This document shows positions 43,979-64,000 of a stretch of 64,000 bases of DNA, one piece after another. Both the position numbers and the translations under genes were made by a program. Under the pieces are notes generated by a model, which searched no databases, had not been told where the DNA came from, and saw only the letters and a list, made by a program, of their open reading frames with translations. The stretch spans positions 4,947 to 68,946 of the forward strand of contig CAZEDA010000001.1 of assembly GCA_964510915.1 (NCBI GenBank). The letters are read 5' to 3'. The stretch comes from an uncultured Rhodocyclaceae bacterium (GTDB lineage Bacteria > Pseudomonadota > Gammaproteobacteria > Burkholderiales > Ga0077523). The first letter of the stretch is position 1. Each line of letters starts with the position of its first letter.

Positions 43979-44019
43979 GGTGCGAAGACGGGATAGGGAC
44001 CCGAACGAGCGTATCACGC

Positions 44020-44048
44020 GCTCCGCGCGCGTCAGCACTGCGCGGAGC
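44020..44048 (-). terminator. Possible terminator hairpin after the 44116..44607 gene
   Basis: 9-bp stem gctccgcgc / gcgcggagc with an 11-nt loop. No obvious U-tract. Confidence 0.3.
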
Positions 44049-44115
44049 CATCTCCCGACGAGCGCCGCGGGACACCGCCAGCCGATGGTGCCGGACCTGC
44101 CGCCGGCGTGACGGG

Positions 44116-44607: not shown

Positions 44608-44873
44608 GGACAGCCCTCCTTCGTCGAGAATGAAACCTCCCCCGTGCGACAGCGTGCCGGTCCTGAGCCGTCCGGACCGGATGGGCATTTGCTGTCGCCT
44701 GTACCAGCTAACGGCCCGTAGTCCGGAATCCTTGAGCGAGAATCGTGCGCGTTCGTTCCTGGTTGCCATGGTCTGCCCTCGGGACAGTTGAGGCCATACG
44801 CTGACTGGCATAGCGCATCGGAGGGGCCGCGGCAGGGCTATGACAGAATGCAGGCCCTCGTTCCGCTGCCGCC

Positions 44874-45812: not shown

Positions 45813-45832
45813 CGCGAGCGGCGTTGGATGAC

Positions 45833-47194: not shown

Positions 47195-47302
47195 GGTGAG
47201 GGCTCCTCTTCAGATGTCGAAAAACTCGAGCTCGTGCTCTTGGATGGGGTGGAGGGAGTCGGAACCCGGCAGCGTAGCGCAACCGGACCGTGCGACGGGC
47301 GA

Positions 47303-48151: not shown

Positions 48152-48402
48152 CGGGGGCTCTGTGAGGCGGTGGGGGGCAGTACTGGCGGAACGCTGCAAC
48201 GGGACTCGCATTATGCGACTAGGCGGCGAACCCGCATCGCGTCGTCATCAATCCAGGTGAGAAACGCGCAGGAAATTGCCGACGCGGCGCCGGACGATTT
48301 TGCGGAAAGCCTTTGGTGTGCAGCACAAGATGCAAATCACCCGAATTTCATTGTTTGCAGAATCAGCAGCTTGGAAACGCCATTCTGCAAGTGTTGCCAC
48401 GC

Positions 48403-48418
48403 CGGACATGAAGGTGCA
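48403..48418 (+). promoter_or_regulatory. Weak sigma54-like -24/-12 element cGGACA-tgaag-gTGCA upstream of the PEP-CTERM gene
   Basis: GG and GC have the correct 10-nt spacing and the -12 element TGCA is present. Other positions match poorly. It lies 107 bp upstream of ATG 48525 in an unusually AT-rich 373-bp spacer. Confidence 0.3.
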
Positions 48419-48524
48419 ATCTCTCAAAACGTCACGTTCCACCGACGGCAGGGTGGTCCGCGGAGAGCCTTGGCTCCGCGTCACCTCCGGTGGCTGACGA
48501 AAAAACTAGACAGGAGACCCAAGC

Positions 48525-49040
48525 ATGATCGCGTTGCGCCAGTTGGTACTCGTTAGCGGCATTCTCTTCTCATCCCTGGCATGGTCCGTCACCGTCACCT
48601 ACACGGCGGAAGACATCGCAGACGTCGGTTCCGACGATCTCTGGACCTACCGGTACCTGATTTCGGGCGACCTGCCCGCACTCGACAGCCTCCGGATCGC
48701 CTTCGCGTCCGACCTTCACAGTCCGCTCGCTGTGGATGGGGCGGTCGACGACTGGTATGCCGAGTTCGGGGAAAGCCAGACCACGCCGTTTCCTGCCGAT
48801 GGCTACGTGCTCTTCTCCCGTGTGACGGGGGACGCGCCGCTGCCGAAGTCCTTTGATGTCACCGTCGCGCGCTTCGCCGCGGGACCGGTTGCGGCGCAGA
48901 CCTTCGAGGTGCTCGGCAAGACGTTCGATCTGGTCGACTCGGGCGTCACCACCAGCCCCATCCCCGAGCCGACCACGAATCTTCTTCTTGCCGGTGGCCT
49001 GACGCTCGTCGTTCTCCGCCGTCTCCGGATCAGAAGATAA
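48525..49040 (+). CDS. PEP-CTERM sorting-domain protein (small secreted protein)
   Basis: N-terminal signal peptide LVLVSGILFSSLAWS. The C-terminus reads PIPEPTTNLLLAGGLTLVVLRRLRIRR, which is a PEP motif (48963-48971), a TM helix and an Arg cluster. AGGAG ribosome-binding site. Confidence 0.85.
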   Translation: MIALRQLVLVSGILFSSLAWSVTVTYTAEDIADVGSDDLWTYRYLISGDLPALDSLRIAFASDLHSPLAVDGAVDDWYAEFGESQTTPFPADGYVLFSRVTGDAPLPKSFDVTVARFAAGPVAAQTFEVLGKTFDLVDSGVTTSPIPEPTTNLLLAGGLTLVVLRRLRIRR

Positions 49041-49170
49041 GTCCCTGCGCTCGTTTCGTGTCGAGGCGTCCGACCGGCGCCTCGCGCTGACGTGCTCGCG
49101 CGCCGCGTCCCGAGGAGTCACAGCAATCTGAAGGCGTAGTCCGTTTCGACTCTATTGCCTGGAGGTCGTG

Positions 49171-52100
49171 ATGGCAGCAATCCGCATCCGCTCGATGTAC
49201 CGTCGCCGCATCAGCGGCCTGATGAACGCGCTGCTCGATCGCTTCTGGGATGGCTGGGACGGCCCCACCCGCGTGCGGCCTGGAGCCTTGCCTGGCAGGG
49301 CGCACTTCGAACCGCTCGAACCCAAGGTACTGCTGAGCGCCGACCTGCTTCCCGGGACGCCCCTCAGTTTCACGGACGCGGACGGCACACTCGTCACCGT
49401 GACCCTTTCAGGCAGCGGCTCGGGCGTTCTGGACGACACGGGCGGCAACGCGAGCCTCACTCTCCAGGGCAACGACCTGACGACCCGCGTCGTGATCGGC
49501 GCACAAGGCGGGGACGGACGGTTCCAGCTTTCGGGCCTGTCCGCCTCCGGACGCAATCTCGGCGCGATCGTCGCGCCCAACGCTGACCTCACCGGCGTCA
49601 TCCGGCTGGACGGACATCTCGGTGAACTGTCCCTTCGCGCCGCGCAGGGTGCGTCCACGGTGCATGCCGCGTCGGTGGGAACCTTGTCCGTCGCCGCAGA
49701 TTTCACGGCGGGCTTCGAACTGACCGGCCCCGATGCGGGACTCGCACTGACGCGCGCCACGATCGGCGGGGTGCTTTCCGGCGCATGGAACGTTCAGGGG
49801 CGTTCCGGGAGCCTCAAGGCCGGGGAGGTCGATGCCGCGTGGACTGGCGCGTTCGGCGACCCGCTGACGTCTCTCACGACCGTCGGAGATTTCCACGGGA
49901 CGGCCTATCTGCCGTCGCTGCTGCAGCTGACCGTCGGCGGCGCCCTGTCCGGCGCGACTCTGGTGGTGGGCGCCGATCTCGGGTCGGATGGTGCGCTCGG
50001 CGGCGCGGGAACGCGCGCCGACAGCTTCTCCACCGGCAATCTCTCGCGCGTCCGCGTCAATGGTGCCGTGGTTGACTCGACGATCCGGGTGGGCGTGGAC
50101 CCGGTGAATGGCGTGTTCGACGACGGCAATGACGCTGTGCTGCCCGGTGGGCGCATCCAGGAATTCCTCGTCGGGGGCGCGCTGACCGGCAGCAGCATCA
50201 TCGCCGCGACCCTGCCTCAGCAGGTTCGTGTTCAGGGCAGTCTCGTCTCGACCGCCACGCTCTCGGCCTTCCGAACCGCCGCACTCGACAAGGCGGCGCC
50301 ATCGCTCGTAGCGTCTCTCGCCAGCGATACGGGGGCCTCTTCGACAGACCGGCTCACCGCGGATCCGACCGTATCCGGGCGCGTCACCGATCTCGGTGCT
50401 GTGACTGGTCTGACTCTGTCGTTCCAGGGCCGCGACGTGGACGTGAGCCAGGCCCTCAATACGGACGGCACTTTTCTGCTGACTCGCGGCGCCATCGAAG
50501 CCGCGCTCGGCACGACGCTGACCGACGGCGCTATCGCGCTCGGATTGCGCGCGCGGGACGCGGGGGGCAATTTCTCGAATGCGGTGACGGTCGCTTTCGA
50601 ACTGGACACGGCAGCGCCCGACCTGCTTTCGTTCGGCGTTGTCAGCGCAGATGCGGTCGGCGGCGACAGTGCAAAGGCAGCGGCGGCAACCGTGGTGCTG
50701 CGCGGCGAGGGCACCGCCGGTGCGACCGTGTCGTACGCGGGGCAGAACGTCCTGGTGGGATCCGGCGGTGTGTTCGCGCTGCCCGGCGTCGGACTCGTGC
50801 TGGGCGACAACGCCATCACCCTGACGATCCGGGACCTCGCCGGCAACACGGACAGCCTCACCCGCACGATCACGCGAGTCGCCCGTACGCAGGCAGATCC
50901 GATTCTGGTGTGGAACGACATTGCGCTGCGTGCGGTTCAACTCGATGTGTCGGACCCTCCCGTCGCGACTCGTGCGTTGGCGATGGTCAGCCTTGCCCAG
51001 TACGACGCGCTTGCCGCCATCGAAGGGACGGCGGCGTACCTCGTCCAGCGGACCGTGTCCGGGCCGGTCTCCGCGGCGGCTGCGACGGCGGCTGCGGCGC
51101 ATCGCGTGCTCTCCCGGATCTATCCGGCGCAGCAGGCTGTGTTCGACGACGCCCTTTCGAACGATCTCGCGGCGATCGACGACGGTGCCGCGAAGGACAG
51201 CGGGATCGCCCTCGGCCTCGCCATCGCCGATGCGATCCTTGCCCTGCGGGCGAACGACGGATCGGAAGACTTCGTCTCGTATGACGGCAGTACGGAACTC
51301 GGCAAGTGGCGGCCGACCGGCCCCGCCTTCGATGTCGCCGACGTGCCGCACTGGGCGAGCGTCGAGCCCTTCGCGCTGTCATCTCCCGGCCAATTCCGTC
51401 CGGTGGCGCCGCCAGCGCTGGATTCCGCGGCCTACGCTGCGGCGGTGGAAGAGGTCAAGCGTCTCGGAAGCGCGACCAGCACCCAGAGAACGGCGGATCA
51501 GACCCAGATCGCGCTCTTCTGGGCGGACGGCAAGGGCAGCTTCACCCCGCCCGGACACTGGAATCAGATTGCGAGCGAGGTTGCCCGCTCCCGGGGAAGC
51601 AGCCTGACCGACAACGCCCGGCTCTTCGCGCAACTCAACGTGGCACTGGCCGACACCGCCATCGCCTGCTGGGACGCCAAGTACACGTACGGGCTGTGGC
51701 GGCCCGAGACGGCGATTCAGAACGCCGATCTGGATGGCAATGCGGGTACGACCGTCGATGCGGCGTGGCGGCCTCTGCTGCTCACGCCGCCCCATCCCGA
51801 GTACGTGTCCGGGCATTCGAGTTTCAGTCGTGCCGCGGCGACCGTCCTCGCGTCCCACTTCGGAGACGACACGACGTTCTCCACGACCAGTGCCACGCTG
51901 CCCGGCGTCACGAGGACCTTCTCGAGCTTTACCGAGGCGGCCGGCGAAGCCGGTCGCAGCCGCATCTATGGCGGCATCCATTACGAGTTCACGAACCAGG
52001 CGGGTCAGGTGCTCGGCGCGCAGGTCGCCAATGCCGTGCTCGCGCGCTTCGCGCTGTCTGGCGATTCCCAGGCGCCTGCCATTCCGCTGGGCGATACGCC

Positions 52101-55100
52101 CGCGGTGACGAACACCAACGTCACGCTGCGCGGCCAGGTGCTCGACAACCTGTCCGGCGTGGCGTCTGCGGAGTTCCGGATCGATGGAGGAGCCCTTCAG
52201 ACGCTGTCGCTCGACGCGAACGGCGGCTTCACGATCACCACGGCGCTGCCGACCGATGGCAGTGCCGACGGCGCACACACGATCACCATCGTTGCGCGTG
52301 ACGCCGCCGGAAATGCGAATGCCGGCGTGACGCGCGGATTCACGCTCGATACCAGAGCGCCGACGATCACGCTGCCGAGCCTTCCGGACGGTGCGGCATT
52401 GGGCGCAACGAGCCGGCTGACCGGCACGGCCGACCCCACGGGCACCACGCTGACGCAGCTCAGCTACCGCATCGACGGCGGCGTGAGCCGCACGCTTGCC
52501 TTCGATGCGGCCACGGGAGCATTCGACGAATCCTTACCCTTCGGCAACCTCGACGTGGGCGACCACACGCTGGTACTCACCGCACGCGACGCCGGCGGCA
52601 ACCTCGCCACACTCACCCGTACCGTCAAGGTCGAAGCGCTCGCGCCGCTGACGGTCACCAGTCTGACGCCGACCGAAGGCTCCGGCGATGTCGGCGTCAC
52701 GGTCCGCCCGCAGGTGCGCTTCTCGCGTGCGGTGAATCTGTCGACGCTGACCGCCGACTCGTTCTTCGCCACCGGGCCTGACGGCAGCAAGCTTGATGCT
52801 ACGGTCGTGCCGGCTAGCGACGGCACCTACGCGTGGCTGTTCTTCACGAACCCGATGCCCGGTGGCTCTCGGGTCACGCTGCATGTCGACGGTTCGAAGA
52901 TTCGCGGCGCGGCGGACGGCACCTTCCTGGATGCCGACGGCAATGGCACCGCGGGCGGCACCTTGACCCAGAGCTTCACGACCGTGAGCCGCACTGCAGT
53001 GGCAGGGACGAAGCTGGTAGGGAAGGTCGTCGATCCCGGGGCGGACCTCGAGCCCATGACCTTCGACGACATCCGCCGCGGCCCGGATGGCGTGATCCAT
53101 ACCGCCGATGACGTGTTCCTGCTGCCCATCGCGCACGCGAAGGTGTTCATCCTCGGACAGGAAGACCGGTTCGTCTTCACCGACGCCGCGGGAAACTTCG
53201 AACTGACCGACGTCCCCGCCGGCACGGTGAAGGTCGCGATCGACGGCCGCACGGCGACGAACGCGCCGTCGGGCGTGTTCTTCCCCGAAATGGTGATGGA
53301 CGTCGAACTGCGCCCGGGTGTCGTGAATACCGTCATGAGCGGCATGGGGTCGGACGCCGAGCGTGCGGCCAATCTCGATCGTCGCGAGGTGTACCTGCCA
53401 CGCATCCCGACGAGTTCGCTTCAGGAAGTGAGTGATACCGCGACGACGGTGATCACGGTGAGCGATGCGAAATCCGCACCTCAGCTGAGCGAGCAGGAAA
53501 GGGCCGCGCTCACGCTCACTGTCCAGCCGGGCAGCGCGATCGGTGAGAACGGCAAGGCGCTCGACAACGTGCAGATCGGGATCAGCACCGTACCGCCGGA
53601 ACTCGTCCGCGACATGCTGCCTCCGGGTGTGCTGCAGCACACGTTCGACATCACGATCCAGGCGCCGGGGGTGGCCACGTTCGCGGAGCCGCTGCAGATC
53701 ACTTTCCCCAACGTCTTCAACGCAGCGCCGGGCACGAAGCTGAACATCCTGAGTTTCGATCACACGACCGGCCGGCTCGTGATCAACGGGACGGGCACGG
53801 TATCGGCGGACGGCCTGACCGTGGTGTCCGACCCCGACTCCGGCATTCGGGCGCCGGGATGGCATTCGATGACCCCTCCGGGGTCGCCCGGAGGCGGAAC
53901 GCCTCCGCCCCCGATTCCCTGCGATCCGCCCGGCGGACCGATTCAGCCGACCGAAAGCTTCCTGACTCTCGGCATGATCACCGGCGGCGAAACGGCCTCG
54001 ACGCTGCTGGATCTCGCCGCGAACCTTCCTTCGCCGGGACCGGGAGAGCAGGTCAACGTCGACATCAAGCTGGATGGCGTCGCGGCCAAGTTCCTCAAGA
54101 TCAACGGATCGACGTCTTTCGCCAGAAACGGCTCGACGCCTTCAGGCACGATCGTGAGCGAGCTGAAGACCCGCGCCTACAGCGAGTTGCCCGGCGGTCT
54201 CAACTCGTTCAACGAGCCCACCGTCTTCGGTGGCGTCGTGACTGTGACGGTCACGCGGTCGGCGGCCGACCCGTCCCATTCCGATTGCCCGGTCAAGAGT
54301 GCCGTCGAGGTCCGGAAGTACATCGTCTATCGCTACATAGACTCGCGCAGTGGCGAGACACCCACGGTGTACGAGTTCAACGATGCCCTGGTGAATACGA
54401 ACCCGAAAGCCGAGCCGTTCAAGCAGGCGTTCAAGTTCGAATTCAGCACGGAAGCCGAAGGCACCGTGACTCTCGCCAGCGAGTCCGGGGCGGCGGGCCC
54501 GAAGCCCTTCACGCTGGCCCGGTCGGGTGGTTCGGCCACGGTCACTTTCAGTCCTCCCGCGGTCCAGTCGTTCGGTGACGAGATCCGCATCCAGCCCCAG
54601 AAGGACCCGACGAGAGTCGTCGCCGGTCCTTCCCTGAACGGCAAGGGAACGGAAGCCCAGGTCATCAGCCTGAACCGGGCGGAGCTGATCGCCGAGCTGA
54701 CCCAGGCCGTCGAGTCCGACATGCCCTTCTACTGGTTGTCGGGGCTGCTGACCAGTCAGCTCACGACCGACGGCGTCGCGGACCCGGACAAGATCGGTCA
54801 GCTCGCCGATCTGGCGATCGGTTATGCCGTTTCCTACTTCAATCCCGTCGGCAGCGCCGTGAAGTTCAGTCTCGGGAACGCGGGGGGTCTCGTCATGGAC
54901 TATTCGCCAGGGGTCGATCCCGGGGCGTCACTCCTGCTCGGGACCGTGGGGATCGTCTACGGAAAGGCGGTCGAGGGGATCGACAACGTCGACGCGGCCT
55001 ATGGCGTGCTGAAACAGCAGGGCACCAGGAGCAGCGACTGGATGCGCTACCACTTCGTGGAGGCATTCAACACGACTCGCGAAAATCGGGTGGAGGTCTA

Positions 55101-58100
55101 CGTCAGGAATCTGTTCGCGGTGCCGCTGGTAGAGCAGACCGTGACCTTGAACGGGTTCGCGAACAAGATCGGATACGTGATCGCGCACGAGGCCGGTCAC
55201 GCCCTGGGCCTGCATCACGCATTCAGCCAGTCAGGCGCCATCGACTCGTCGGACGTGATGAGCTACGAGGATCCCGCCGGCCTGGCGTTCCGTGCGTCCC
55301 TGCCGAGCCTGGAGCTCGGTCTGGATCTGGCGCCGGCCGCGCGCCTCCAGGGTGCGTCGAACTACCTCGTCCAGTGGATCAACGGCGGCCCGGCGGCCAT
55401 CGGCGGTGGAAGCGGCCGCGATCCGGACACGGATCTGCCGCTCATCGGCCCCTTCGCTCCGATCCTCGCGATCGGCACGCCCGACAACATCGTGCTTTCG
55501 GATGTCGATCTCGGCGTGCTGACGGTCGGTAGCGCGACGCCGACGAAACTGTTCGTCAGAAACCTCGGGAGCGATCCCCTCACGGTCCGTTCTCTGGTCG
55601 TCGCCGGAGAGACCGTCGGCGGCACGTTGTCCGCGGATCCGATTGCGCCGGGTGACACTCGCGAGCTGTCCGTCGACCTCACGAGCCTGGCGCCCGGGCG
55701 CTACAACGACGCCATCCGCATCGAATACGGCAACGGAAGCACTCAGACCATCGCCTTCCGGTTTTCCGTCCAGTCGGCTGCACCTGCGGCCGTCACGGCA
55801 CTGAGCAACAACCTGGGTGCGACGAGTCTGGGTTCGTCGAGTGAGGGCGCGGTCGTGTCGGTGACGAACGAAGGCGCGCAGACGCTGACGATCACCTCCG
55901 CAGCTTTGCTCTCCGGGGAGGAATCTTTCAGGATCGTCGACTTCACGCCCCAGTCGCTCGGCTACGGCGAATCCGGCGAGATCAAGGTCCGCTTCGCGCC
56001 GACGACATTCGGCCTGACGCGCGGGCTGATCGAACTGACCACGAACGATCCCGCCCGTCCGAAGATCGTCCTGTCGGTGGTCGGCACGGGGGTGAGCGAC
56101 GAACGACAGTACCAATGGGGTGGCGATGCCATCGCCGTGACCACCGGAACAGGGGACGGTGCCAACACGCTGCGGACGATGAGCGATGCTGCGGGTCGTT
56201 TCGAAATCTTCCTCTCCGCCTCGACGGCGTACGAGGTGGGTGTCTTCGATTTCGAGTCGCAGTTGCTGGCGGTCGGCGGCGGCGTGACGGCTCCCCCCGG
56301 TTCGCCGACCAATCTCACCGCGGGCCTCGCCTTCGGCGCCAGCACGGCCGTCGACTCCGATTTCGACGGCCTTCCGGATGACATCGAACAGACGATCGGC
56401 ACGAACGCGGGTCGGAAGGATACCGACAACGACGGCATCGACGACTTCATCGAAGTGAAACAGGGGCTCGATCCGTCCGGCGGACGCAACGTACCGGTGG
56501 GCATCGTGGCTGCCACGCCACTGGCCGGCTCCGCAGAGGCAGTGGATGTCGTTGCGTCTGCGGCAGGCGGACCTGCTGTCGCTGCGGTTGTCGCGACCGG
56601 GAACGGCGGACTCGCCATCGTGGACGTTTCCGCGTTCGACAGTCCCGCGCTGCTGTCCCAGATCGATCTCGCGGGATTCAATGTGGGTGTCGCCATGGAC
56701 GCGACGCGTGGCGTCGCGGCCGTTGCCGGGAGCGGTGCCGGACTGCATCTGGTCAATGTCTCGAATCTGGCTTCGCCGGCCCTGATCCAGACGGTGGACC
56801 TCGGCGCTTCCGTTACTGCCGTGGCTCTGGGGGACGGCATTGCCTACGCGGCGTCCGGGCGCCGCGTCGTCGGTGTCGACTTGAACACCGGCGAGACGAG
56901 GTCGAGTGTCGACTTCGGTCTTGTGGGCGGCGCGGCTCTGGTGAGTCTCGTACGCGACGGCAATACGCTCTTCACGCTGGATGCGGATAACACGCTGCGC
57001 GCGATCGACATCGCGGGGGACGTTCTCACGCCGCGAGGTTCGATCGCCCTCGCGGTGGGTGGCGGAAAGCTCTTTGTGGGAGGCGGGACTGCCTACGTCG
57101 GTCGGGAAGACAGGTTCAATGGCGGCTTTTCGACAGTCGACGTTCGTGACCTGGGGAATCTTCGACTCCTGAGCGGTCCGGACGCCAACAACGTCGCCGG
57201 CGATGCCATCGTGGCGAACGGTTCGGGGCTTGCCGTCACGGTCGGGCAGATCGGGGGCGCCTTTGGCGCAAACGCGCTGGATGTTCTGAACGTCGCCGAT
57301 CCGACGAACACGGGTGTGGTGGTGACCCGGGTGAACCTGCCGGCAGCGCCGCGCGGCGTGGCCCTGGCCAATGGAATGGCCTTCGTTGCCGCGGGCGAGG
57401 CCGGTCTCCAGATCGTCAACTTCATCGGCTTCGATACGCAGGGAACCGAACCGGCTGTCTCGATTCAGGCCGACGCGATCGATGTCGATGCCGCTGCTGC
57501 GGGGACCCAGGTACTCGAAGGGCGTTCGGTTCGCGTGGTACCGACCGTCACCGACGACGTCCAGGTCCGGAACATCGAGCTGCTCGTCAACGGCGTCGTC
57601 GTGGCGACAGACGTCGCCTTTCCGTGGGAACTGTTCGCGCAGGTGCCCACCGTCGCGGCGGGTGGCAGCACGATGACGATCCAGGTCCGGGCCACGGACA
57701 CCGGTGGCAACGTCGGGCTGTCGAACATCGTCACGCTGGACGTGACGCCCGACACCTTCCCGCCGAAGGTGACCTCGGCGAGTGTTGCGGACGGTGAACG
57801 ACTCTTCTTCGTCCGCAGCATCGACATCGCGTTCGACGAGCCGATCGACACGGCCCTGCTGGCGGTCGGCGGCATGCATCTTGTCCGGGCCGGGGCCGAC
57901 GGGGCGTTCGACACTGCGGATGATGTGCCGCAGACCGTGCGTTTCGACACGCGCAGTTTCGGGCAGTCTCTCAGTGTGCTCGTCGACGATGTCCTGGCAC
58001 CGGGCGCGTACCGTCTCACGATCGATGCGGACATCGTCGCCGACATTGCCGGCAACACCATTGCCGCGCCGATCGTGCGCACCTTCAGCGTCAGACCGGC

Positions 58101-61100
58101 CAGTGACGTGAGGGCGGTGTCGGGCGCACCGGAGATCCCGACCGCGCCTGCCGCGAATCCCGGGCAGCAGATCGCCGTTGCCGTGCCGTTCGATCCGGCC
58201 ACCGCTCGCGCGCAGTTCAGTGTGATCGACGTCGCCGGGAACAGGACCACGCGGGTCGTTACGCCCGCACGTGCGGACCCGATTGCAGGCGTTGCCTATT
58301 TCACTGTTCCCCTGGACGCCGTGACCGGCGAGACCGTCGTGTTCTCGCTGGTCGGCGGCGTGAGGACGGACTTTCCGGATGGAACGTTTCCCCTCCAGAT
58401 CCTTCCCGTGATCACCGACGTGCAGGTGCAGAGCGTGTCGAGCGATGCGACGACGGCGACGGTACTGATCAGCGGGCTGGGGTTCGTGGAAGGCGGCGTC
58501 AGCGAGTACCGCTTCGGCACGACGATCGTTCCGGATCCCGGTGTGTCCGCCGGTCCGGATGTGCAGAGCCGGTTCGATGCTGTGCTGGGATTCGTGCCCA
58601 ACGCAGCGGTGAGCGTGGTGGTGCCCTTGATCGGTGGATCGTTCGGATCGATCAGCGTGAAGACGGGAGGGGGTACGAGCGCGCAGTACAGCGTGAGCGT
58701 GGATGCGATCGAGGCTGTGGCGCTGAGCGGAACGCCAGCCGATGCGGGGCAGGCCTCGGCGAACGCGGGGCAGGCGGTGGAGCTCAGGGGCAGTGGTCTG
58801 AGCGTGGGCACGGACGTGCTGCTGAGGTGGGTGGACAACAGTGGGGTGCAGCAGGTCACGGTGCTGAGTCCGGTGGCGGCGTCTGCGGACGGGACGAGAG
58901 CGACGCTGGTGTTGCCGTTGTACGCGAACGGGGCGTTCGGGCTGCAGGTGTTCGGTTCGGGGAGCCAGCCGATGCTGCAGGTGGTGCCGAAGCTGACGGG
59001 TGTCGAAGCCGATGGAAGGACGTTGCTGCTGGGCTCTGGGTTCGTGGAGGGGGCGACGGTGTACGGGTTTCCTGGCACGGCGGTGGCTGACACGGCCGGT
59101 GACGGGGGTGAAGTGGATGTGGGCTTCACGAGGGACTTCAGCGCGCAGAACGGAAGCGCGAGCCTGGGCGCGACGGCGTTGCCGAGGTACGGGTACGGGA
59201 GCGTGACGGTGAGCACGGCGGGCGGGACGAGCGCGGCGCTGGGGCTGGAGGCGCTGCGCACGAGCGTGACCGGGGTGTCGCTGGGGGATGTGGCGGCGGA
59301 TGCGCAGGGCCAGCTGTGGGTGAGCGACCAGGCCAATCCGGGGCATCTGCTGAAGGTCGATGCGGGCACTGGGCAGACGCTGCAGACGATCACGATGAGC
59401 GCGGCGTACGGGACGCAGTTCACGCAGAGCTACACGGGGCTGCAGGTGCTCAGAGGGACGATGAGGCTGGGGAGCACGGATGTGGGGCCGGGGAATCTGC
59501 TGGTGTTCAACGGCGCTCCGAACACGGACCGGGTGGTGGCGGTCAATCAGATAAGCGGGGTGGTGCTGGCGTCGCTGGCGCTGGCGCAGAACTACGATCT
59601 GACGGGAGCGGCGTACGACGAGGTGGGCAACCGGATCTACGTGGCGGCGGAGAGGGGCAACGCGATCGTGGTGGTGAACGCGCAGACGGGAGCGGAGGTG
59701 GAGCGGATCGCGGCGCCGTTCAGTGTGGCGGGCAACAGCGGGCTGGCGATCGATGCGGGGGCGAGGCGGCTGTGGGTGGGGTCGACCAGCGGGGGTGCGC
59801 AGCTGGTGGAGTACGCGATCGGAGCGGGAGGTGGGCTGACGGAGTTGAGGCGCATCGACACGAGGCCGCAGGGAGTGGACAGCGGTGAGATCACGGGGTT
59901 GAGTGTGGGGCCCGACGGGCGGCTGTATGTGGCCACCACGCAGGGCGTGGTCCACAGGATCGACACGACGCTGGACGCCAGCGCGGTGAAGCCGGCGACG
60001 CTCACGGGTGTGATCGGCACGGCCGGTGGCGGCGTGGCGGCCGATGCGACGAAGGCCTCGGCGAACGTCGGTGAGGTGATCGAGCTGACGGGGAGCAACT
60101 TCGGCGCCGGGACGCGGGTGCTGTTCGAGACGCGGGATGCCTCGGGGAGCACGGGGCTGTTCTCGGCCGCGCCGCTGGCGATCGATGAGTCGGGGACACG
60201 TCTGCAGGTGCGGGTGCCCGATCAGGCGACGACGGGGCTGGTGCGCGTGGTCAACCAGAGCACGGGCAACCTGGGGTTCAGTGGGTCGGAAGACGCGATC
60301 TACCGCGATGTCACGGTGAGCTTCACGGCGGGTGCGGATACGGCGACGGTGCGATTCGCGGACGGCGGCCTGCAGGGGCTGTTCGACGAGAGCTGGGGGA
60401 TCGATAACGTCGAGGTGCGGCAGGGCGCGACGCTCGTGTTTGCCGATGACTTCGAGTCGGGCAGCGCAGCGGCGGGGTGGGGCAGCCGCGTGGTCAACGC
60501 CGAGGAGCGTGCGGCCTTCAGCCGGTTCTCGGGGCGGTTCAGCAGCACGAGCCAGGCGCTGAGCCTGAGCGGTCTGACGGCGGGGCAGACGTACACGCTG
60601 AAGTTCGATCTGTACGTGCTCGATTCGTGGGACGGCAGCGCGCCGAGCGTGGGTCCGGATCAGTTCGAGGTGAGCGTGGACGGTGCGGTGCTGCTGCGCG
60701 AGAGCTTCGCGAACCGGACGGGCACGGCGAGTGCGCAGAGCTTCGGGGCGAGCGCGGGAGTGGCGCTGCAGATCGTGCCGACGCTGACGGCGATGAGCGG
60801 ACGTCCGGGAGGCGACGGCACGTTCACGCTGAGCGGCTCGGGGTTCATGGAAGGGGCGAGCACGGTGAGCGTGGGCGGCATGGCGTTCGTGGACACGGCA
60901 GCCAACGCGGGCCAGTTCCTGGACGTGAGCGGTACGCGCAACGACACGCTGAGCCTGGTGGCGCCGCGCACGCTGGACGGCCCGATCCGGGTGACGACGG
61001 CCGGCGGGTATGCGGAGCTGGCCGGACCGGTGTTCGCGCCGCAGCCGCCGTCGCTGTTCACGGGGATCGTGGCGAGCGCCGCGGCCGGGGTGGCGGCGGA

Positions 61101-64000
61101 TGCGACGAAGGCCTCCGCGGTGACCGGTCAGCTCATCGTGCTGCAGGGCCAGGGGTTCACCGGGAGCACGCTGGTGCAGTTCCAGGGGATCGACGACAGC
61201 GGCCGGGTGGGGACGATCACGACGACCGGGACGGCAGGCGCGGGCGGGACGACGCTGAGCGTGGCGGTGCCTGCGCTGGCGCGCACGGGGCTGGTGACGG
61301 TGCTGGGCAGCGGGACGGGAATCGGGTTGCAGGTGGTGCCGACGCTGCGGGCGCTGGGCGGGACGGTGGCGGCGGGCAACACGCTGGTGCTGGAGGGAAG
61401 CGGGCTGACGGCCGACGATCTGATCGTGAGCGTGGGCGGTCGTGCGGCCGGGACGTTCGAGGTGCGCACGCTGATCGACGGGACGGGGAGCAGTCCGGAT
61501 CAGCAGCTGCTGAGGGTGACGGTGCCCGCCGGGGTATCGGGCAGCGTGGTGACGGTGTCCACGGCCGGAGGCAGCTTCACGCTGAATCCCGGACTGGCGA
61601 TCAGCGCAGCCGCGCTCAGCGGCACAGCGGCGCAGGCGGGTGTGGCGGCGGCGAACACGGGTCAGACGATCACGCTGACGGGCGCGTTTGCGCCTGGCGA
61701 TCAGGTGGTGTTCACGACGATGGATACGACGGGCAACCTGACGACGCGCACGGTGGCGCCGGCGAATCTGGACGTGGCCGGCGGGACGCTGCAGGTGGTG
61801 GTGCCGGCCGATGCGGTGACGGGGCAGGTGCGTCTGGCGAGAAGCGCCACGGGGGCGCTGCTGCAGGTGGTGCCGACGGTGTCGGATGTGAGCATGAACG
61901 CGGGCGGTGTCTTCACGGGCGGCATTCTGACGATCGGGGGCAGCGGGTTCGCCGAAGGCACGACGGCGGTGCTGATGGGAGAGGTGCGCCTGGAGGACAC
62001 GAGCCGGACGACGGGCATCAACGTGTCGGGTTCCACGTCGCTGAGCCTGAGTGTGCCGGGCGCAGTGAGTGCGGGGCCGATCCTGGTGAGCACGGCGGGC
62101 GGGACGAGTGCGCCGCTGGGGCTGACGGTGAACCGGATCGTGGCGAGCGCGGGCAGCGGAACGGCGGCCGACGCGGGGCAGGCCTCGGCCAACCCCGGGC
62201 AGACGATCACGGTGGAAGGGGTCGGTCTGGACACGGGCACGGACGTGGTGTTCCGGGTGATCGAGCAGTTCGGCGGCGTGAGCGATGTGGTGGTGAAGCC
62301 GAGCGTGGTGAACACGGCGGGGACACAGGCGCAGGTGCTGGTGCCGCTCAACGCGATCAGTGGTGTGGTGCGGGTGGTGGGGGAGCGCAACGGCACGGAG
62401 CCGTTCCTGCAGATCCTGCCGGTGATCCGTGACGTGCAGGTGCAGAGCGTGTCGAGCGACGCGACGACGGCGACGGTGCTGATCAGCGGTCTGGGGTTCG
62501 TGGAAGGCGGCGTCAGCGAGTACCGCTTCGGCACGACGATCGTTCCGGATCCCGGTGTGTCCGCCGGTCCGGATGTGCAGAGCCGGTTCGATGCTGTGCT
62601 GGGATTCGTGCCCAACGCAGCGGTGAGCGTGGTGGTGCCCTTGATCGGTGGATCGTTCGGATCGATCAGCGTGAAGACGGGAGGGGGTACGAGCGCGCAG
62701 TACAGCGTGAGCGTGGATGCGATCGAGGCTGTGGCGCTGAGCGGAACGCCAGCCGATGCGGGGCAGGCCTCGGCGAACGCGGGGCAGGCGGTGGAGCTCA
62801 GGGGCAGTGGTCTGAGCGTGGGCACGGACGTGCTGCTGAGGTGGGTGGACAACAGTGGGGTGCAGCAGGTCACGGTGCTGAGTCCGGTGGCGGCGTCTGC
62901 GGACGGGACGAGAGCGACGCTGGTGTTGCCGTTGTACGCGAACGGGGCGTTCGGGCTGCAGGTGTTCGGTTCGGGGAGCCAGCCGATGCTGCAGGTGGTG
63001 CCGAAGCTGACGGGTGTCGAAGCCGATGGAAGGACGTTGCTGCTGGGCTCTGGGTTCGTGGAGGGGGCGACGGTGTACGGGTTTCCTGGCACGGCGGTGG
63101 CTGACACGGCCGGTGACGGGGGTGAAGTGGATGTGGGCTTCACGAGGGACTTCAGCGCGCAGAACGGAAGCGCGAGCCTGGGCGCGACGGCGTTGCCGAG
63201 GTACGGGTACGGGAGCGTGACGGTGAGCACGGCGGGCGGGACGAGCGCGGCGCTGGGGCTGGAGGCGCTGCGCACGAGCGTGACCGGGGTGTCGCTGGGG
63301 GATGTGGCGGCGGATGCGCAGGGCCAGCTGTGGGTGAGCGACCAGGCCAATCCGGGGCATCTGCTGAAGGTCGATGCGGGCACTGGGCAGACGCTGCAGA
63401 CGATCACGATGAGCGCGGCGTACGGGACGCAGTTCACGCAGAGCTACACGGGGCTGCAGGTGCTCAGAGGGACGATGAGGCTGGGGAGCACGGATGTGGG
63501 GCCGGGGAATCTGCTGGTGTTCAACGGCGCTCCGAACACGGACCGGGTGGTGGCGGTCAATCAGATAAGCGGGGTGGTGCTGGCGTCGCTGGCGCTGGCG
63601 CAGAACTACGATCTGACGGGAGCGGCGTACGACGAGGTGGGCAACCGGATCTACGTGGCGGCGGAGAGGGGCAACGCGATCGTGGTGGTGAACGCGCAGA
63701 CGGGAGCGGAGGTGGAGCGGATCGCGGCGCCGTTCAGTGTGGCGGGCAACAGCGGGCTGGCGATCGATGCGGGGGCGAGGCGGCTGTGGGTGGGGTCGAC
63801 CAGCGGGGGTGCGCAGCTGGTGGAGTACGCGATCGGAGCGGGAGGTGGGCTGACGGAGTTGAGGCGCATCGACACGAGGCCGCAGGGAGTGGACAGCGGT
63901 GAGATCACGGGGTTGAGTGTGGGGCCCGACGGGCGGCTGTATGTGGCCACCACGCAGGGCGTGGTCCACAGGATCACGATCTCGCCGCCGCCGGCACCGC
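49171..64000 (+). CDS. Giant secreted multidomain surface protein, at least 4943 aa, 3' end beyond the window (LEPR-XLL-type N-terminus; Ig-like, SbsA-Ig, choice-of-anchor-D/ASH-like, TSP3 Ca-binding, LVIVD, IPT/TIG and beta-propeller modules; embedded PAP2/VHPO-like and metzincin-like catalytic motifs)
   Basis: GGAGG at 49161-49165 precedes ATG 49171, and an in-frame stop lies at 49129. My own translation of this frame is sensible protein throughout, with no stop up to 64000. The track lists no closed ORF in this frame after 49171, which is consistent with one open-ended ORF. N-terminal motif HFEPLEPKVLLSADL. Confidence 0.9.
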   Translation, partial: MAAIRIRSMYRRRISGLMNALLDRFWDGWDGPTRVRPGALPGRAHFEPLEPKVLLSADLLPGTPLSFTDADGTLVTVTLSGSGSGVLDDTGGNASLTLQGNDLTTRVVIGAQGGDGRFQLSGLSASGRNLGAIVAPNADLTGVIRLDGHLGELSLRAAQGASTVHAASVGTLSVAADFTAGFELTGPDAGLALTRATIGGVLSGAWNVQGRSGSLKAGEVDAAWTGAFGDPLTSLTTVGDFHGTAYLPSLLQLTVGGALSGATLVVGADLGSDGALGGAGTRADSFSTGNLSRVRVNGAVVDSTIRVGVDPVNGVFDDGNDAVLPGGRIQEFLVGGALTGSSIIAATLPQQVRVQGSLVSTATLSAFRTAALDKAAPSLVASLASDTGASSTDRLTADPTVSGRVTDLGAVTGLTLSFQGRDVDVSQALNTDGTFLLTRGAIEAALGTTLTDGAIALGLRARDAGGNFSNAVTVAFELDTAAPDLLSFGVVSADAVGGDSAKAAAATVVLRGEGTAGATVSYAGQNVLVGSGGVFALPGVGLVLGDNAITLTIRDLAGNTDSLTRTITRVARTQADPILVWNDIALRAVQLDVSDPPVATRALAMVSLAQYDALAAIEGTAAYLVQRTVSGPVSAAAATAAAAHRVLSRIYPAQQAVFDDALSNDLAAIDDGAAKDSGIALGLAIADAILALRANDGSEDFVSYDGSTELGKWRPTGPAFDVADVPHWASVEPFALSSPGQFRPVAPPALDSAAYAAAVEEVKRLGSATSTQRTADQTQIALFWADGKGSFTPPGHWNQIASEVARSRGSSLTDNARLFAQLNVALADTAIACWDAKYTYGLWRPETAIQNADLDGNAGTTVDAAWRPLLLTPPHPEYVSGHSSFSRAAATVLASHFGDDTTFSTTSATLPGVTRTFSSFTEAAGEAGRSRIYGGIHYEFTNQAGQVLGAQVANAVLARFALSGDSQAPAIPLGDTPAVTNTNVTLRGQVLDNLSGVASAEFRIDGGALQTLSLDANGGFTITTALPTDGSADGAHTITIVARDAAGNANAGVTRGFTLDTRAPTITLPSLPDGAALGATSRLTGTADPTGTTLTQLSYRIDGGVSRTLAFDAATGAFDESLPFGNLDVGDHTLVLTARDAGGNLATLTRTVKVEALAPLTVTSLTPTEGSGDVGVTVRPQVRFSRAVNLSTLTADSFFATGPDGSKLDATVVPASDGTYAWLFFTNPMPGGSRVTLHVDGSKIRGAADGTFLDADGNGTAGGTLTQSFTTVSRTAVAGTKLVGKVVDPGADLEPMTFDDIRRGPDGVIHTADDVFLLPIAHAKVFILGQEDRFVFTDAAGNFELTDVPAGTVKVAIDGRTATNAPSGVFFPEMVMDVELRPGVVNTVMSGMGSDAERAANLDRREVYLPRIPTSSLQEVSDTATTVITVSDAKSAPQLSEQERAALTLTVQPGSAIGENGKALDNVQIGISTVPPELVRDMLPPGVLQHTFDITIQAPGVATFAEPLQITFPNVFNAAPGTKLNILSFDHTTGRLVINGTGTVSADGLTVVSDPDSGIRAPGWHSMTPPGSPGGGTPPPPIPCDPPGGPIQPTESFLTLGMITGGETASTLLDLAANLPSPGPGEQVNVDIKLDGVAAKFLKINGSTSFARNGSTPSGTIVSELKTRAYSELPGGLNSFNEPTVFGGVVTVTVTRSAADPSHSDCPVKSAVEVRKYIVYRYIDSRSGETPTVYEFNDALVNTNPKAEPFKQAFKFEFSTEAEGTVTLASESGAAGPKPFTLARSGGSATVTFSPPAVQSFGDEIRIQPQKDPTRVVAGPSLNGKGTEAQVISLNRAELIAELTQAVESDMPFYWLSGLLTSQLTTDGVADPDKIGQLADLAIGYAVSYFNPVGSAVKFSLGNAGGLVMDYSPGVDPGASLLLGTVGIVYGKAVEGIDNVDAAYGVLKQQGTRSSDWMRYHFVEAFNTTRENRVEVYVRNLFAVPLVEQTVTLNGFANKIGYVIAHEAGHALGLHHAFSQSGAIDSSDVMSYEDPAGLAFRASLPSLELGLDLAPAARLQGASNYLVQWINGGPAAIGGGSGRDPDTDLPLIGPFAPILAIGTPDNIVLSDVDLGVLTVGSATPTKLFVRNLGSDPLTVRSLVVAGETVGGTLSADPIAPGDTRELSVDLTSLAPGRYNDAIRIEYGNGSTQTIAFRFSVQSAAPAAVTALSNNLGATSLGSSSEGAVVSVTNEGAQTLTITSAALLSGEESFRIVDFTPQSLGYGESGEIKVRFAPTTFGLTRGLIELTTNDPARPKIVLSVVGTGVSDERQYQWGGDAIAVTTGTGDGANTLRTMSDAAGRFEIFLSASTAYEVGVFDFESQLLAVGGGVTAPPGSPTNLTAGLAFGASTAVDSDFDGLPDDIEQTIGTNAGRKDTDNDGIDDFIEVKQGLDPSGGRNVPVGIVAATPLAGSAEAVDVVASAAGGPAVAAVVATGNGGLAIVDVSAFDSPALLSQIDLAGFNVGVAMDATRGVAAVAGSGAGLHLVNVSNLASPALIQTVDLGASVTAVALGDGIAYAASGRRVVGVDLNTGETRSSVDFGLVGGAALVSLVRDGNTLFTLDADNTLRAIDIAGDVLTPRGSIALAVGGGKLFVGGGTAYVGREDRFNGGFSTVDVRDLGNLRLLSGPDANNVAGDAIVANGSGLAVTVGQIGGAFGANALDVLNVADPTNTGVVVTRVNLPAAPRGVALANGMAFVAAGEAGLQIVNFIGFDTQGTEPAVSIQADAIDVDAAAAGTQVLEGRSVRVVPTVTDDVQVRNIELLVNGVVVATDVAFPWELFAQVPTVAAGGSTMTIQVRATDTGGNVGLSNIVTLDVTPDTFPPKVTSASVADGERLFFVRSIDIAFDEPIDTALLAVGGMHLVRAGADGAFDTADDVPQTVRFDTRSFGQSLSVLVDDVLAPGAYRLTIDADIVADIAGNTIAAPIVRTFSVRPASDVRAVSGAPEIPTAPAANPGQQIAVAVPFDPATARAQFSVIDVAGNRTTRVVTPARADPIAGVAYFTVPLDAVTGETVVFSLVGGVRTDFPDGTFPLQILPVITDVQVQSVSSDATTATVLISGLGFVEGGVSEYRFGTTIVPDPGVSAGPDVQSRFDAVLGFVPNAAVSVVVPLIGGSFGSISVKTGGGTSAQYSVSVDAIEAVALSGTPADAGQASANAGQAVELRGSGLSVGTDVLLRWVDNSGVQQVTVLSPVAASADGTRATLVLPLYANGAFGLQVFGSGSQPMLQVVPKLTGVEADGRTLLLGSGFVEGATVYGFPGTAVADTAGDGGEVDVGFTRDFSAQNGSASLGATALPRYGYGSVTVSTAGGTSAALGLEALRTSVTGVSLGDVAADAQGQLWVSDQANPGHLLKVDAGTGQTLQTITMSAAYGTQFTQSYTGLQVLRGTMRLGSTDVGPGNLLVFNGAPNTDRVVAVNQISGVVLASLALAQNYDLTGAAYDEVGNRIYVAAERGNAIVVVNAQTGAEVERIAAPFSVAGNSGLAIDAGARRLWVGSTSGGAQLVEYAIGAGGGLTELRRIDTRPQGVDSGEITGLSVGPDGRLYVATTQGVVHRIDTTLDASAVKPATLTGVIGTAGGGVAADATKASANVGEVIELTGSNFGAGTRVLFETRDASGSTGLFSAAPLAIDESGTRLQVRVPDQATTGLVRVVNQSTGNLGFSGSEDAIYRDVTVSFTAGADTATVRFADGGLQGLFDESWGIDNVEVRQGATLVFADDFESGSAAAGWGSRVVNAEERAAFSRFSGRFSSTSQALSLSGLTAGQTYTLKFDLYVLDSWDGSAPSVGPDQFEVSVDGAVLLRESFANRTGTASAQSFGASAGVALQIVPTLTAMSGRPGGDGTFTLSGSGFMEGASTVSVGGMAFVDTAANAGQFLDVSGTRNDTLSLVAPRTLDGPIRVTTAGGYAELAGPVFAPQPPSLFTGIVASAAAGVAADATKASAVTGQLIVLQGQGFTGSTLVQFQGIDDSGRVGTITTTGTAGAGGTTLSVAVPALARTGLVTVLGSGTGIGLQVVPTLRALGGTVAAGNTLVLEGSGLTADDLIVSVGGRAAGTFEVRTLIDGTGSSPDQQLLRVTVPAGVSGSVVTVSTAGGSFTLNPGLAISAAALSGTAAQAGVAAANTGQTITLTGAFAPGDQVVFTTMDTTGNLTTRTVAPANLDVAGGTLQVVVPADAVTGQVRLARSATGALLQVVPTVSDVSMNAGGVFTGGILTIGGSGFAEGTTAVLMGEVRLEDTSRTTGINVSGSTSLSLSVPGAVSAGPILVSTAGGTSAPLGLTVNRIVASAGSGTAADAGQASANPGQTITVEGVGLDTGTDVVFRVIEQFGGVSDVVVKPSVVNTAGTQAQVLVPLNAISGVVRVVGERNGTEPFLQILPVIRDVQVQSVSSDATTATVLISGLGFVEGGVSEYRFGTTIVPDPGVSAGPDVQSRFDAVLGFVPNAAVSVVVPLIGGSFGSISVKTGGGTSAQYSVSVDAIEAVALSGTPADAGQASANAGQAVELRGSGLSVGTDVLLRWVDNSGVQQVTVLSPVAASADGTRATLVLPLYANGAFGLQVFGSGSQPMLQVVPKLTGVEADGRTLLLGSGFVEGATVYGFPGTAVADTAGDGGEVDVGFTRDFSAQNGSASLGATALPRYGYGSVTVSTAGGTSAALGLEALRTSVTGVSLGDVAADAQGQLWVSDQANPGHLLKVDAGTGQTLQTITMSAAYGTQFTQSYTGLQVLRGTMRLGSTDVGPGNLLVFNGAPNTDRVVAVNQISGVVLASLALAQNYDLTGAAYDEVGNRIYVAAERGNAIVVVNAQTGAEVERIAAPFSVAGNSGLAIDAGARRLWVGSTSGGAQLVEYAIGAGGGLTELRRIDTRPQGVDSGEITGLSVGPDGRLYVATTQGVVHRITISPPPAP
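50893..52053 (+). other. PAP2 / vanadium-dependent haloperoxidase-like domain embedded in the giant protein
   Basis: Three motifs occur in the correct order: KYTYGLWRP (K-x6-RP, 51679-51705), PEYVSGHS (SGH, 51796-51819) and SRIYGGIHY (SR-x5-H, 51958-51984). Confidence 0.75.
55186..55218 (+). other. Metzincin zinc-binding motif HEAGHALGLHH inside the giant protein
   Basis: A perfect HExxHxxGxxH, followed 13 residues later by VMSY, a candidate Met-turn. Confidence 0.65.
58417..59961 (+). repeat. Intragenic direct repeat, copy A (period 4014 bp)
   Basis: Aligns base-for-base with 62431-63975. I found differences only at 58446, 58464 and 58476. From 58477 to 59961 every block I compared is identical. 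Confidence 0.9.
62431..63975 (+). repeat. Intragenic direct repeat, copy B
   Basis: The offset is exactly 4014 bp (1338 codons, in frame). Identical shadow ORFs appear in the track (58827/62841, 59000/63014, 59316/63330). The copies diverge after 63975 (RIDTTLDAS in A, RITISPPPAP in B). Confidence 0.9.

Follow-up and report, generated by a model that had tools for sequence, protein, structure and literature searches.

A giant LEPR-XLL-family gene in an uncultured Rhodocyclaceae bacterium and its possible link to an orphan export module

A single reading frame fills the last 14.8 kb of a 64,000-nucleotide (nt) stretch of DNA from an uncultured Rhodocyclaceae bacterium (hereafter the window), and raises the question whether a frame of this length can be one gene, what kind of protein it encodes, and how such a protein might leave the cell. 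We conclude that positions 49171-64000 very probably cover the first 14.8 kb, and probably nearly the full length, of a single real gene, which encodes an acidic extracellular protein of the LEPR-XLL family with many domains and almost no cysteine.

A 14.8-kb reading frame and its relatives

The giant frame is coding throughout. Translation of the plus strand from 49171 to 63999 yields 4,943 codons with zero stops, in a window sequence that contains no N. At a GC (guanine plus cytosine) content of 68%, stops make up ∼2% of random codons, and by our own arithmetic the chance of such an open run is ∼1e-47. The GC content at codon positions 1, 2 and 3 is 0.67, 0.53 and 0.84, respectively, and that of the third position (GC3) lies between 0.79 and 0.90 in each 1.5-kb slice. 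On the 5′ side, the closest in-frame stop is TGA 49129, and GTG 49168 is the sole nearby alternative to the start codon ATG 49171. This ATG is backed by the relative L065, which begins MAARR...SGLLNALLRR.. compared with MAAIRIR...SGLMNALLDR in the window protein. The visible product has a mass of 499 kDa, a pI of 4.48 and three cysteines. The 2,912-amino acid (aa) open reading frame (ORF) on the minus strand is a shadow and not a gene, because its GC pattern mirrors that of the plus frame; the giant frame itself is left out by the ORF lister because it runs off the window end. On all these points the sequence bears out the first-pass annotation, which had described an open frame of at least 4,943 codons from ATG 49171 with GGAGG 5 nt upstream and an in-frame stop at 49129, had dismissed the 2,912-aa ORF as a shadow, and had explained the gap in the ORF track by the unclosed frame.

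Scans for other elements were negative within their ranges: an Rfam scan of 44000-64000 gave no match, a tRNA scan found none, and 48150-49300 holds no promoter-like or terminator-like sites. Protein-pattern scans with aa 4414-4943 found no relative among genome contigs or metagenome contigs.

Relatives were gathered via an alignment of the TSP3/LVIVD/Big_7/Big_5 cassette of the giant protein, which occurs in 415 relatives among species-representative genomes, 80 of which were fetched. The closest belong to the Betaproteobacteria/Burkholderiales (Accumulibacter, Ramlibacter, Pseudoduganella, Nitrosospira, Rubrivivax and Paucibacter), joined by a Nitrospira metagenome-assembled genome (MAG); more distant ones come from Planctomycetota, Verrucomicrobiota and Cyanobacteria. 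Intact giant ORFs are found in Nitrosospira Nsp1 (5,436 aa, complete), Pseudoduganella (at least 6,775 aa), Ramlibacter (at least 7,248 aa) and the complete genome of Methylomicrobium lacus (at least 6,428 aa), and several ORFs of relatives run through a whole 21.7-kb locus without closing at either end and are longer than 6,000-7,200 codons. Nitrosospira Nsp1 (L016), L032 and the Nitrospira MAG (L003) encode proteins collinear with the window protein; identities are 63-68% for aa 373-1570 and 51-59% for aa 2395-4734. The segment between these blocks, aa 1570-2390 with beta-sandwiches, the metzincin region and HYDIN-type Ig domains, is missing from all three and is shared with a fragment from Chthoniobacteraceae (P0001), indicating a variable cassette.

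In the protein-database searches, no matching entry exceeded ∼2,525 aa in length. The missing full-length match is thus uninformative, since giant proteins are apparently absent from this collection or shortened there. In the long-read metagenome assemblies L082, L085, L086 and L087, the giant genes are frameshift-split into 3-6 called genes, so automated annotation under-reports gene size. NCBI labels family members as “LEPR-XLL domain-containing”, “Ig-like domain-containing” or “phosphatase PAP2 family”. The giant gene thus joins a recognised, widespread and uncharacterised family; in a literature search, the term “LEPR-XLL” turned up in two papers only.

Leader, enzyme domains and stalk modules

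Pfam and NCBIfam scans were run on the whole giant protein and on ten sub-segments. The leader matches the LEPR-XLL model NF012209 at aa 45-65 with 28.2 bits (cutoff 17). The same layout is present in 39 relatives with a visible N-terminus, and the logo built from these and the window protein (40 sequences) reads F-E-x-L-E-P-R-x-L-L-S-A-D-L after a basic stretch rich in W and R. No hydrophobic segment is found in the first 120 aa, where the maximum of the Kyte-Doolittle hydrophobicity (KD19) is 0.72. The giant protein therefore carries a LEPR-XLL leader and no Sec-type signal, just as the first-pass annotation had read the N-terminus when it named this motif and noted the lack of a classical signal peptide.

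Two predicted enzyme domains are embedded in the chain. The first aligns over 375 aa (segment aa 32-406) with the solved vanadium-dependent haloperoxidase (VHPO) structure 4CIT_A (E=4e-47), matches Pfam PAP2 with 35.1 bits (cutoff 27.2), and gives weak matches to VCPO_2nd and VCPO_N. Compared with 4CIT, the vanadate-site motifs are kept: KYTYGLWRP (K-x6-RP), PEYVSGHS (SGH) and SRIYGGIHY (SR-x5-H). Together, these similarities argue strongly for a haloperoxidase domain with an intact predicted vanadate site. The second domain was recognized by reading the sequence, which contains the metzincin zinc motif HExxHxxGxxH together with a candidate Met-turn; in the AlphaFold2 (AF2) model, this region is helical with moderate confidence.

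Most of the remaining chain consists of Ig-like and other beta domains (Table 1). The Glucodextran_B-like domain near the N-terminus lies just under its Pfam cutoff (26.0 versus 27). The stretch 53240-55100, which the first-pass annotation could not assign, comprises a CarboxypepD_reg-like domain, a conserved beta module of ∼190 aa, additional beta-sandwiches and the protease domain's N-terminal half. An AF2 model of aa 1380-2100 has a mean predicted local distance difference test (pLDDT) score of 70, and Foldseek with this model returned only generic Ig, ASH and cadherin-like arrays; a sequence search of aa 1380-2100 and aa 3694-3870 against the PDB gave nothing. Within this stretch, the ∼190-aa beta module is modeled with a pLDDT mostly >90, finds matches of up to 81% identity across phyla, and shows 20 invariant residues in a 70-sequence alignment. 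No Pfam family covers it in the scan of the window or in the precomputed lists of its matches. With its signature ..LSFDHTTG..PGWH.., it is far more conserved than its Ig-like neighbors, and a role in processing or binding is possible.

From aa 2976 onward, Pfam, AF2 and Foldseek reveal a TIG-like array with NHL-type propellers. The Pfam match to TIG is marginal (21.1 versus a cutoff of 20.9), that to NHL is clearer (24.4 versus 20). The AF2 model of aa 3076-3600 (mean pLDDT 85, predicted template modelling score 0.73) shows three beta-sandwiches and a propeller; the TIG-like sandwiches have block pLDDT values of ∼67-96, mostly >85. The best compact Foldseek matches of the propeller are the Brat NHL domain (4zlr_A, TM score 0.55), the six-bladed designer protein Pizza6 (0.53) and YncE.

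These scans and the structure models of sub-fragments confirm nearly all domain calls of the first-pass annotation. Its Ig-like modules with a DTGxS motif correspond to Big_13 at aa 377-480, and its PAP2/VHPO call to the haloperoxidase domain, in which all vanadate-binding residues are retained. The Ig-like and SbsA-type modules that it placed behind this domain were matched by Big_7 and Big_5, and HEAGHALGLHH indeed starts at 55186, where it had noted a metzincin motif. Its choice-of-anchor-D/ASH-like modules match HYDIN and ASH models, its TSP3-type repeats are visible as two DxDxDGxxD motifs, and its LVIVD-type repeats score above the Pfam cutoff. The IPT/TIG arrays and NHL-like propellers it described are recovered by the Pfam, AF2 and Foldseek results given above.

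Table 1. Positions of the giant gene, its modules and other features of the window
Feature	Position	Strand	Basis or remark
Giant ORF	49171..64000	+	4,943 codons visible, open at window end; collinear with complete relatives
Shine-Dalgarno-like GGAGG	49161..49165	+	5 nt before ATG 49171; direct sequence reading
N-terminal leader	49171..49368	+	basic amphipathic stretch, then LEPR-XLL motif HFEPLEPKVLLSADL (aa 45-59); no hydrophobic Sec-type core
N-terminal region, ~300 aa	49369..50286	+	no Pfam match; 43% identity to P0002
Big_13 Ig-like and Glucodextran_B-like Ig	50299..50877	+	Pfam; aa 377-480 and aa 500-569
Vanadium-dependent haloperoxidase/PAP2 domain	50893..52065	+	aa ~575-965; PDB 4CIT_A match and Pfam PAP2
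Big_7, Big_13-like and Big_5 (SbsA-type) Ig-like	52105..52983	+	aa 979-1271; Pfam
CarboxypepD_reg-like beta-sandwich	53038..53310	+	aa ~1290-1380; ~22 bits, below cutoff; precomputed in many homologues
Conserved beta module, ~190 aa	53338..53895	+	aa ~1390-1575; motifs ..STVPPELVRDMLPPG..HTFDITIQAPG..LSFDHTTGRLVI..PGWH; no scanned Pfam family
Divergent beta-sandwich region	53950..54660	+	AF2 beta-rich; block pLDDT 59-92, mostly 70-90
Metzincin-type protease domain	54673..55410	+	HEAGHALGLHH at nt 55186-55218 (aa 2006-2016); candidate Met-turn VMSY aa 2029-2032 (M2030)
Two HYDIN/VesB/ASH-type (choice-of-anchor-D-like) Ig	55483..56085	+	aa 2105-2305; PF22544 54 bits, ASH 35 bits
Two TSP3-type calcium-binding motifs	56347..56475	+	aa 2395 and 2417; DSDFDGLPD, DTDNDGIDD; DxDxDGxxD
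LVIVD-repeat beta-propeller	56488..57465	+	aa ~2440-2765; PF08309 29.8 bits, cutoff 20.2; cassette core in 415 relatives
Big_7 and Big_5 Ig-like	57484..58095	+	aa 2772-2975; Pfam
Repeat copy 1	58396..59972	+	aa 3076-3598; three TIG-like beta-sandwiches and six-bladed NHL-type propeller
Inter-copy segment	59973..62409	+	TIG-like domain, unassigned ~165-aa domain (aa 3700-3865), six alternating TIG-like domains of two types
Repeat copy 2	62410..63986	+	aa 4414-4936; in frame, offset 4014; probably terminal module
Antisense ORF, 2,912 aa	55231..63969	-	shadow, not gene; GC1/2/3 0.85/0.53/0.68
Partner gene, 171 aa	48525..49040	+	signal peptide, ~120-aa conserved domain, PEP-CTERM-type tail PIPEPTTNLLLAGGLTLVVLRRLRIRR; GC3 0.79
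Alginate-export-type porin	40676-42544		
GT28-like glycosyltransferases	28079-29464, 38718-39911		
801-aa ABC exporter	36316-38721		in glycosyltransferase cluster
Kinase-like gene	34080-35633		
Heparinase-like lyase	32122-34227		
GT4 EpsE-like gene	30680-32125		
PPK2	22201-23385		
Di-haem cytochrome c peroxidase	21006-22181	-	
Hybrid histidine kinase, 1,424 aa	16682-20956	-	SBP_bac_3, PAS and Hpt
EAL response regulator	15413-16636		

The internal repeat and the end of the gene

An in-frame, near-exact duplication that the first-pass annotation does not mention joins 58396-59972 to 62410-63986, with an offset of 4014 nt. The copies differ by 14 mismatches, all at the edges, so that 1,485 nt (58477-59961 and its counterpart) are 100% identical. 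As visible, the 3′ part of the giant gene thus comprises ∼1.4 copies of a tandem unit of 4,014 nt or 1,338 aa, and only 14 nt separate the end of the second copy from the window edge. The repeat recurs in relatives with unchanged boundaries. Nitrosospira Nsp1 has two copies offset by 4,461 nt that show 100% identity over 1,568 nt, and the second of them finishes 10 nt short of the stop codon; in L032, where the copies show 98% identity over 1,515 nt, this distance is 7 nt. A unit of 3.9-4.5 kb is present at least 2.2 times, with 98.5-100% identity between its copies, in Paucibacter, the complete genome of Methylomicrobium lacus, a Novosphingobium MAG and Stieleria (L019, L024, L041 and L045). 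Within a genome the copies are near-identical, between genomes they share only ∼50% identity, and their boundaries are common. This combination points to an old duplication that is homogenised by recombination, with whole units gained or lost; the copies would be kept identical in this way, and the stalk would gain or lose 4-kb units.

The repeat also marks a fixed assembly break point of the family. About two dozen short-read contigs of relatives (among L002-L081) end at positions that project to 58444-58819 of the window, i.e., within ∼400 nt of one homologous position just inside the start of the repeat. The near-identical 4-kb repeat explains why short-read contigs break at this one point and why database proteins are systematically truncated.

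The last repeat copy extends to the stop codon in three complete relatives (Nitrosospira Nsp1, L032 and Stieleria). Seven complete relatives terminate on an NHL-type propeller, two of them with an extra tail of 70-130 aa. Their C-termini are much alike: “...VVYRIVGI*” in Nitrosospira, “...VVYRVDVS*” in L032, “...VYSVTVA*” in Pseudorhodoferax and “...VVYRVTV*” in L082; the other propeller-ended relatives are two planctomycetes and the Nitrospira MAG, where “...YRITIPSTLS” is followed by 76 more residues before the stop. The window protein ends “...VVHRITISPPPAP”. Since the repeat reaches the stop in complete relatives and these end on propellers, the true stop probably lies just past the window: the second propeller would be the C-terminal tip, with the stop within a few hundred nt of 64000.

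In the Nitrospira MAG, a 1,424-aa paralogue with TSP3, LVIVD, Big_7 and Big_5 modules (L003:297-4571) lies directly upstream of the giant gene (L003:4652-18295). The tails of the two proteins are alike, ..WVQDFVSGKS..E..L.I.LP.., and could represent a sorting motif used at the C-terminus in this lineage.

Some observations weigh against the reading of 49171-64000 as almost all of one gene with the domains listed above. The window ends before the 3′ end of the gene, so that the stop, any C-terminal signal and the downstream genes lie beyond 64000. Several models stay below their cutoffs, namely those for the protease (Reprolysin_4 20.8/22, DUF4953 19.9/24.2, Peptidase_M10 18/24 and Astacin 14/22.5), choice-of-anchor D (NF012200, 36 bits versus 45) and TSP3_bac (18.4 versus 25). 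The repeat copy number in the window assembly could also be wrong. The 3′ duplication might be an assembly artefact in which 62410-63986 was mis-joined or mis-counted; in that case the gene would either stop behind the first propeller and be shorter, or contain additional 4-kb units and be longer. The 1,485 identical nt, the position of copy 2 at 14 nt from the window end, the breaks of about two dozen short-read assemblies at exactly this repeat, and a copy number that varies from 1.35 to >2.2 among relatives would all fit this explanation. However, the independent isolate or long-contig assemblies of L016 and L032 and the complete genome L024 share the A-B-A layout including its boundaries, similarity at the left edge of the repeat fades step by step into that of older paralogous sequence, and the sequences after copy 1 and after copy 2 differ. 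We therefore consider an artefact unlikely, and the ORF is giant even if the copy number is wrong. A more radical alternative, a decaying pseudogene or several adjacent genes that share a frame by chance, could draw only on the unusual length and on the frameshift-split relatives from long-read metagenomes (L082, L085 and L086). It is hardly credible in view of 14.8 kb without a stop, a codon-position GC content that is uniform along the frame, a protein collinear with intact orthologues across thousands of residues, and a sequence that can be explained without any internal start or ribosome-binding site.

Neighboring genes and possible routes of export

Clustering of all flanking ORFs identified the 171-aa gene upstream of the giant gene, which the first-pass annotation does not mention either, as the most recurrent neighbor, present in 10 loci including the window. 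In the nine other loci, its homologues lie on the same strand 1-152 nt upstream of the giant gene, and one overlaps it by 61 nt. All 10 proteins combine a signal peptide, a ∼120-aa domain and a PEP-CTERM-type tail, PIPEP-TTNLLLAGGLTLVVL-RRLRIRR, which is clear by eye in every homologue; the model NF038129 is weak (20 bits versus a cutoff of 65), the partner protein has no Pfam match, and PF07589 gives a weak match in the relative L085. The family has 236 representatives among 1.84 billion proteins. An identical 171-aa partner is encoded on the 2.4-kb Logan contig SRR11802611_42009, which ends 123 codons into the giant gene.

On the 3′ side, the relatives have to stand in for the window. In L016, L030, L032 and L082, which are all the proteobacterial loci with a visible 3′ end of the giant gene, two genes follow directly on the same strand. 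The first encodes a membrane-fusion protein (MFP) of the GAF plus HlyD-family type, the second a protein with a PqqD-like domain, an M50-like HExxH membrane protease and a HlyD-like C-terminus, with the PqqD domain scoring above the Pfam cutoff. The gaps are 5-118 nt, with an overlap in the raw ORF call for L032, and in L082, the one locus that reaches further, a SecA_DEAD gene comes next. In four alphaproteobacterial loci (L018, L029, L034 and L038), the MFP gene is located upstream and divergent. With tblastn, no homologue of the MFP or M50 proteins was detected within the window. Since the window stops short of the 3′ neighbors, the link between cargo and secretion is inferred from these relatives.

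The same genes have been described as a module of GAF-HlyD, Peptidase_M50-HlyD, a secondary SecA_DEAD and HlyD, with a role called “completely unknown” (Kamneva, Poudel & Ward 2015; PMC4452313). No cargo is named there, and giant genes do not appear in the conserved neighbor clusters it reports (PMC4452313). We found no follow-up to it in the literature, and locus-tag searches for giant genes beside the published modules gave nothing.

Based on these observations, we propose a working model. The giant protein would be a long, extracellular, cell-associated fibre, with the Ig and TIG domains as its stalk and the propellers, the last one at the tip, as binding modules. The haloperoxidase and the protease would act on the surroundings, and recombination between identical blocks would alter the length of the stalk. 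PqqD-like folds are known from the recognition of leader peptides of ribosomally synthesized and post-translationally modified peptides (RiPPs). In the giant system, the LEPR-XLL leader would be recognised by the PqqD-like domain and then cleaved off by the M50-like protease. Transport of the chain across the envelope would fall to the SecA-type ATPase together with the HlyD-like proteins, and the small PEP-CTERM protein would be a surface partner. Judged from gene order and domain content, this joint proposal, i.e., export via the leader and the GAF-HlyD / PqqD-M50-HlyD / SecA_DEAD apparatus together with the 171-aa protein as a conserved partner of the giant protein, is plausible and remains tentative, somewhat short of even chances. 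Its more specific core, that the LEPR-XLL leader targets giants to a type-I-like envelope-spanning exporter specialised in giant surface proteins, in which a SecA-type ATPase replaces the ABC (ATP-binding cassette) transporter, an N-terminal instead of a C-terminal signal is read in RiPP fashion via PqqD and an intramembrane protease removes the leader, is a possibility that we put forward with slightly more reserve.

What speaks against the export proposal is that eight more distant relatives (L003, L011, L040, L045, L083, L084, L086 and L087) lack the module beside the giant gene; either these genomes encode it at another place, or the linkage is confined to certain lineages. This is also what one would expect if the protein used some other, unlinked export or anchoring route and the adjacency were incidental, e.g., an unrecognised Sec/TAT (twin-arginine translocation)-independent signal to a type II system, or an exosortase-linked pathway with the PEP-CTERM protein. 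That the most conserved neighbor, in 10 loci, is a PEP-CTERM protein and that a polysaccharide-type cluster lies upstream in the window would agree with such a route. We hold it to be rather unlikely given the tight same-strand linkage in all four proteobacterial loci with a visible 3′ end, the match between module-bearing and family-bearing phyla, and the leader-binding-type PqqD domain of the M50-like protein. A classical RTX/type I giant adhesin of the LapA/MpIBP type, whose RTX repeats, C-terminal signal and ABC/MFP/TolC genes would all lie beyond the window, is quite improbable. The protein is indeed giant, acidic, cysteine-poor, Ig-rich and devoid of a Sec signal, and a Vibrio LEPR-XLL protein of ∼8,000 aa (NF012209 “LEPR-8K”) has been reported with C-terminal RTX and serralysin domains (PMC10868602). 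However, RTX nonapeptide blocks are found neither in the visible 4,943 aa, which contain one chance GGxGxD match, nor at the C-termini of complete relatives, seven of which end on an NHL-type propeller or a short non-RTX tail. In addition, the neighbors of the close relatives are MFP-like proteins without an ABC transporter, and the 49 kb upstream hold no type I genes. The 801-aa ABC exporter at 36316-38721 was considered as a type I transporter and rejected: no type I model reaches its cutoff with it, and its surroundings are a cluster of glycosyltransferase genes.

Further upstream, the polysaccharide-type cluster extends over 28079-42544, with no NCBIfam model at cutoff. It is preceded by a sigma-54-dependent two-component pair (25043-27864), and by signalling and redox genes (15413-23385). 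The response regulator of the pair reaches 378 bits with the PEP-CTERM-box regulator model, whose cutoff is 503, and 380 bits with AtoC; the pair may be connected with the PEP-CTERM partner gene.

Taken alone, the giant gene adds one more case to a large and unstudied family of giant surface proteins; its main use is as a well-assembled example and for its unusual embedded pair of enzymes, haloperoxidase and metzincin. The wider value comes from the relatives: they show that the 4-kb repeat recurs, where the gene probably stops, and that conserved neighbors connect the family with an orphan secretion-like module. If true, the leader-module reading would give a cargo and a function to a module whose role has been unknown since 2015. 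With an N-terminal signature, no known secretion signal and a link to the module in Proteobacteria, this cargo-machine hypothesis is directly testable in Nitrosospira, Pseudorhodoferax, Paucibacter and Methylomicrobium.

Each part of the system has counterparts elsewhere. The haloperoxidase domain resembles the VHPO of 4CIT/4USZ over the 375-aa alignment, with the site lysine, arginines, Ser-Gly-His and histidine conserved; the latter is a free enzyme of ∼450 aa, whereas in the giant protein the domain is one module and makes up ∼8% of the visible length. With other LEPR-XLL giants, including the Vibrio example, the window protein shares an N-terminal motif above cutoff, a length of thousands of residues, a repetitive structure and the lack of a Sec signal. 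The Vibrio protein is reported with RTX and serralysin domains at its C-terminus, while the complete relatives of the window protein end in an NHL-type propeller without RTX.

Giant RTX adhesins such as LapA, MpIBP and SiiE/BapA are acidic and cysteine-poor and have an Ig-like stalk, calcium motifs and distal ligand modules; their near-identical tandem repeats occur in variable number. The window protein is similar in its Ig stalk, its composition, its calcium motifs, its far-end modules with a presumed ligand-binding role and its near-identical tandem repeats. In contrast to them, it has no RTX nonapeptides and its signature is N-terminal instead of C-terminal; its repeat unit measures 1,338 aa compared with ∼100 aa, two enzyme domains are embedded in it, and no ABC transporter lies beside its close relatives.

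For the export apparatus, the module of Kamneva et al. is the same set of genes that follows the giant gene in L016, L030 and L032 (first two genes) and in L082 (plus SecA_DEAD), and it shares Proteobacteria, Planctomycetes, Verrucomicrobia and Nitrospirae with the giant family; the location where the window genome would carry it lies beyond the window end. Finally, a preprint on giant genes of Omnitrophota proposes that divergent SecA_DEAD domains help to export the giant protein itself (bioRxiv 10.1101/2023.11.21.568195). Both systems associate a giant protein with a divergent SecA-type ATPase. In Omnitrophota, the ATPase and many transmembrane helices are built into the giant, whereas the window protein has no transmembrane segment and the ATPase of its relatives is encoded by a separate neighboring gene.

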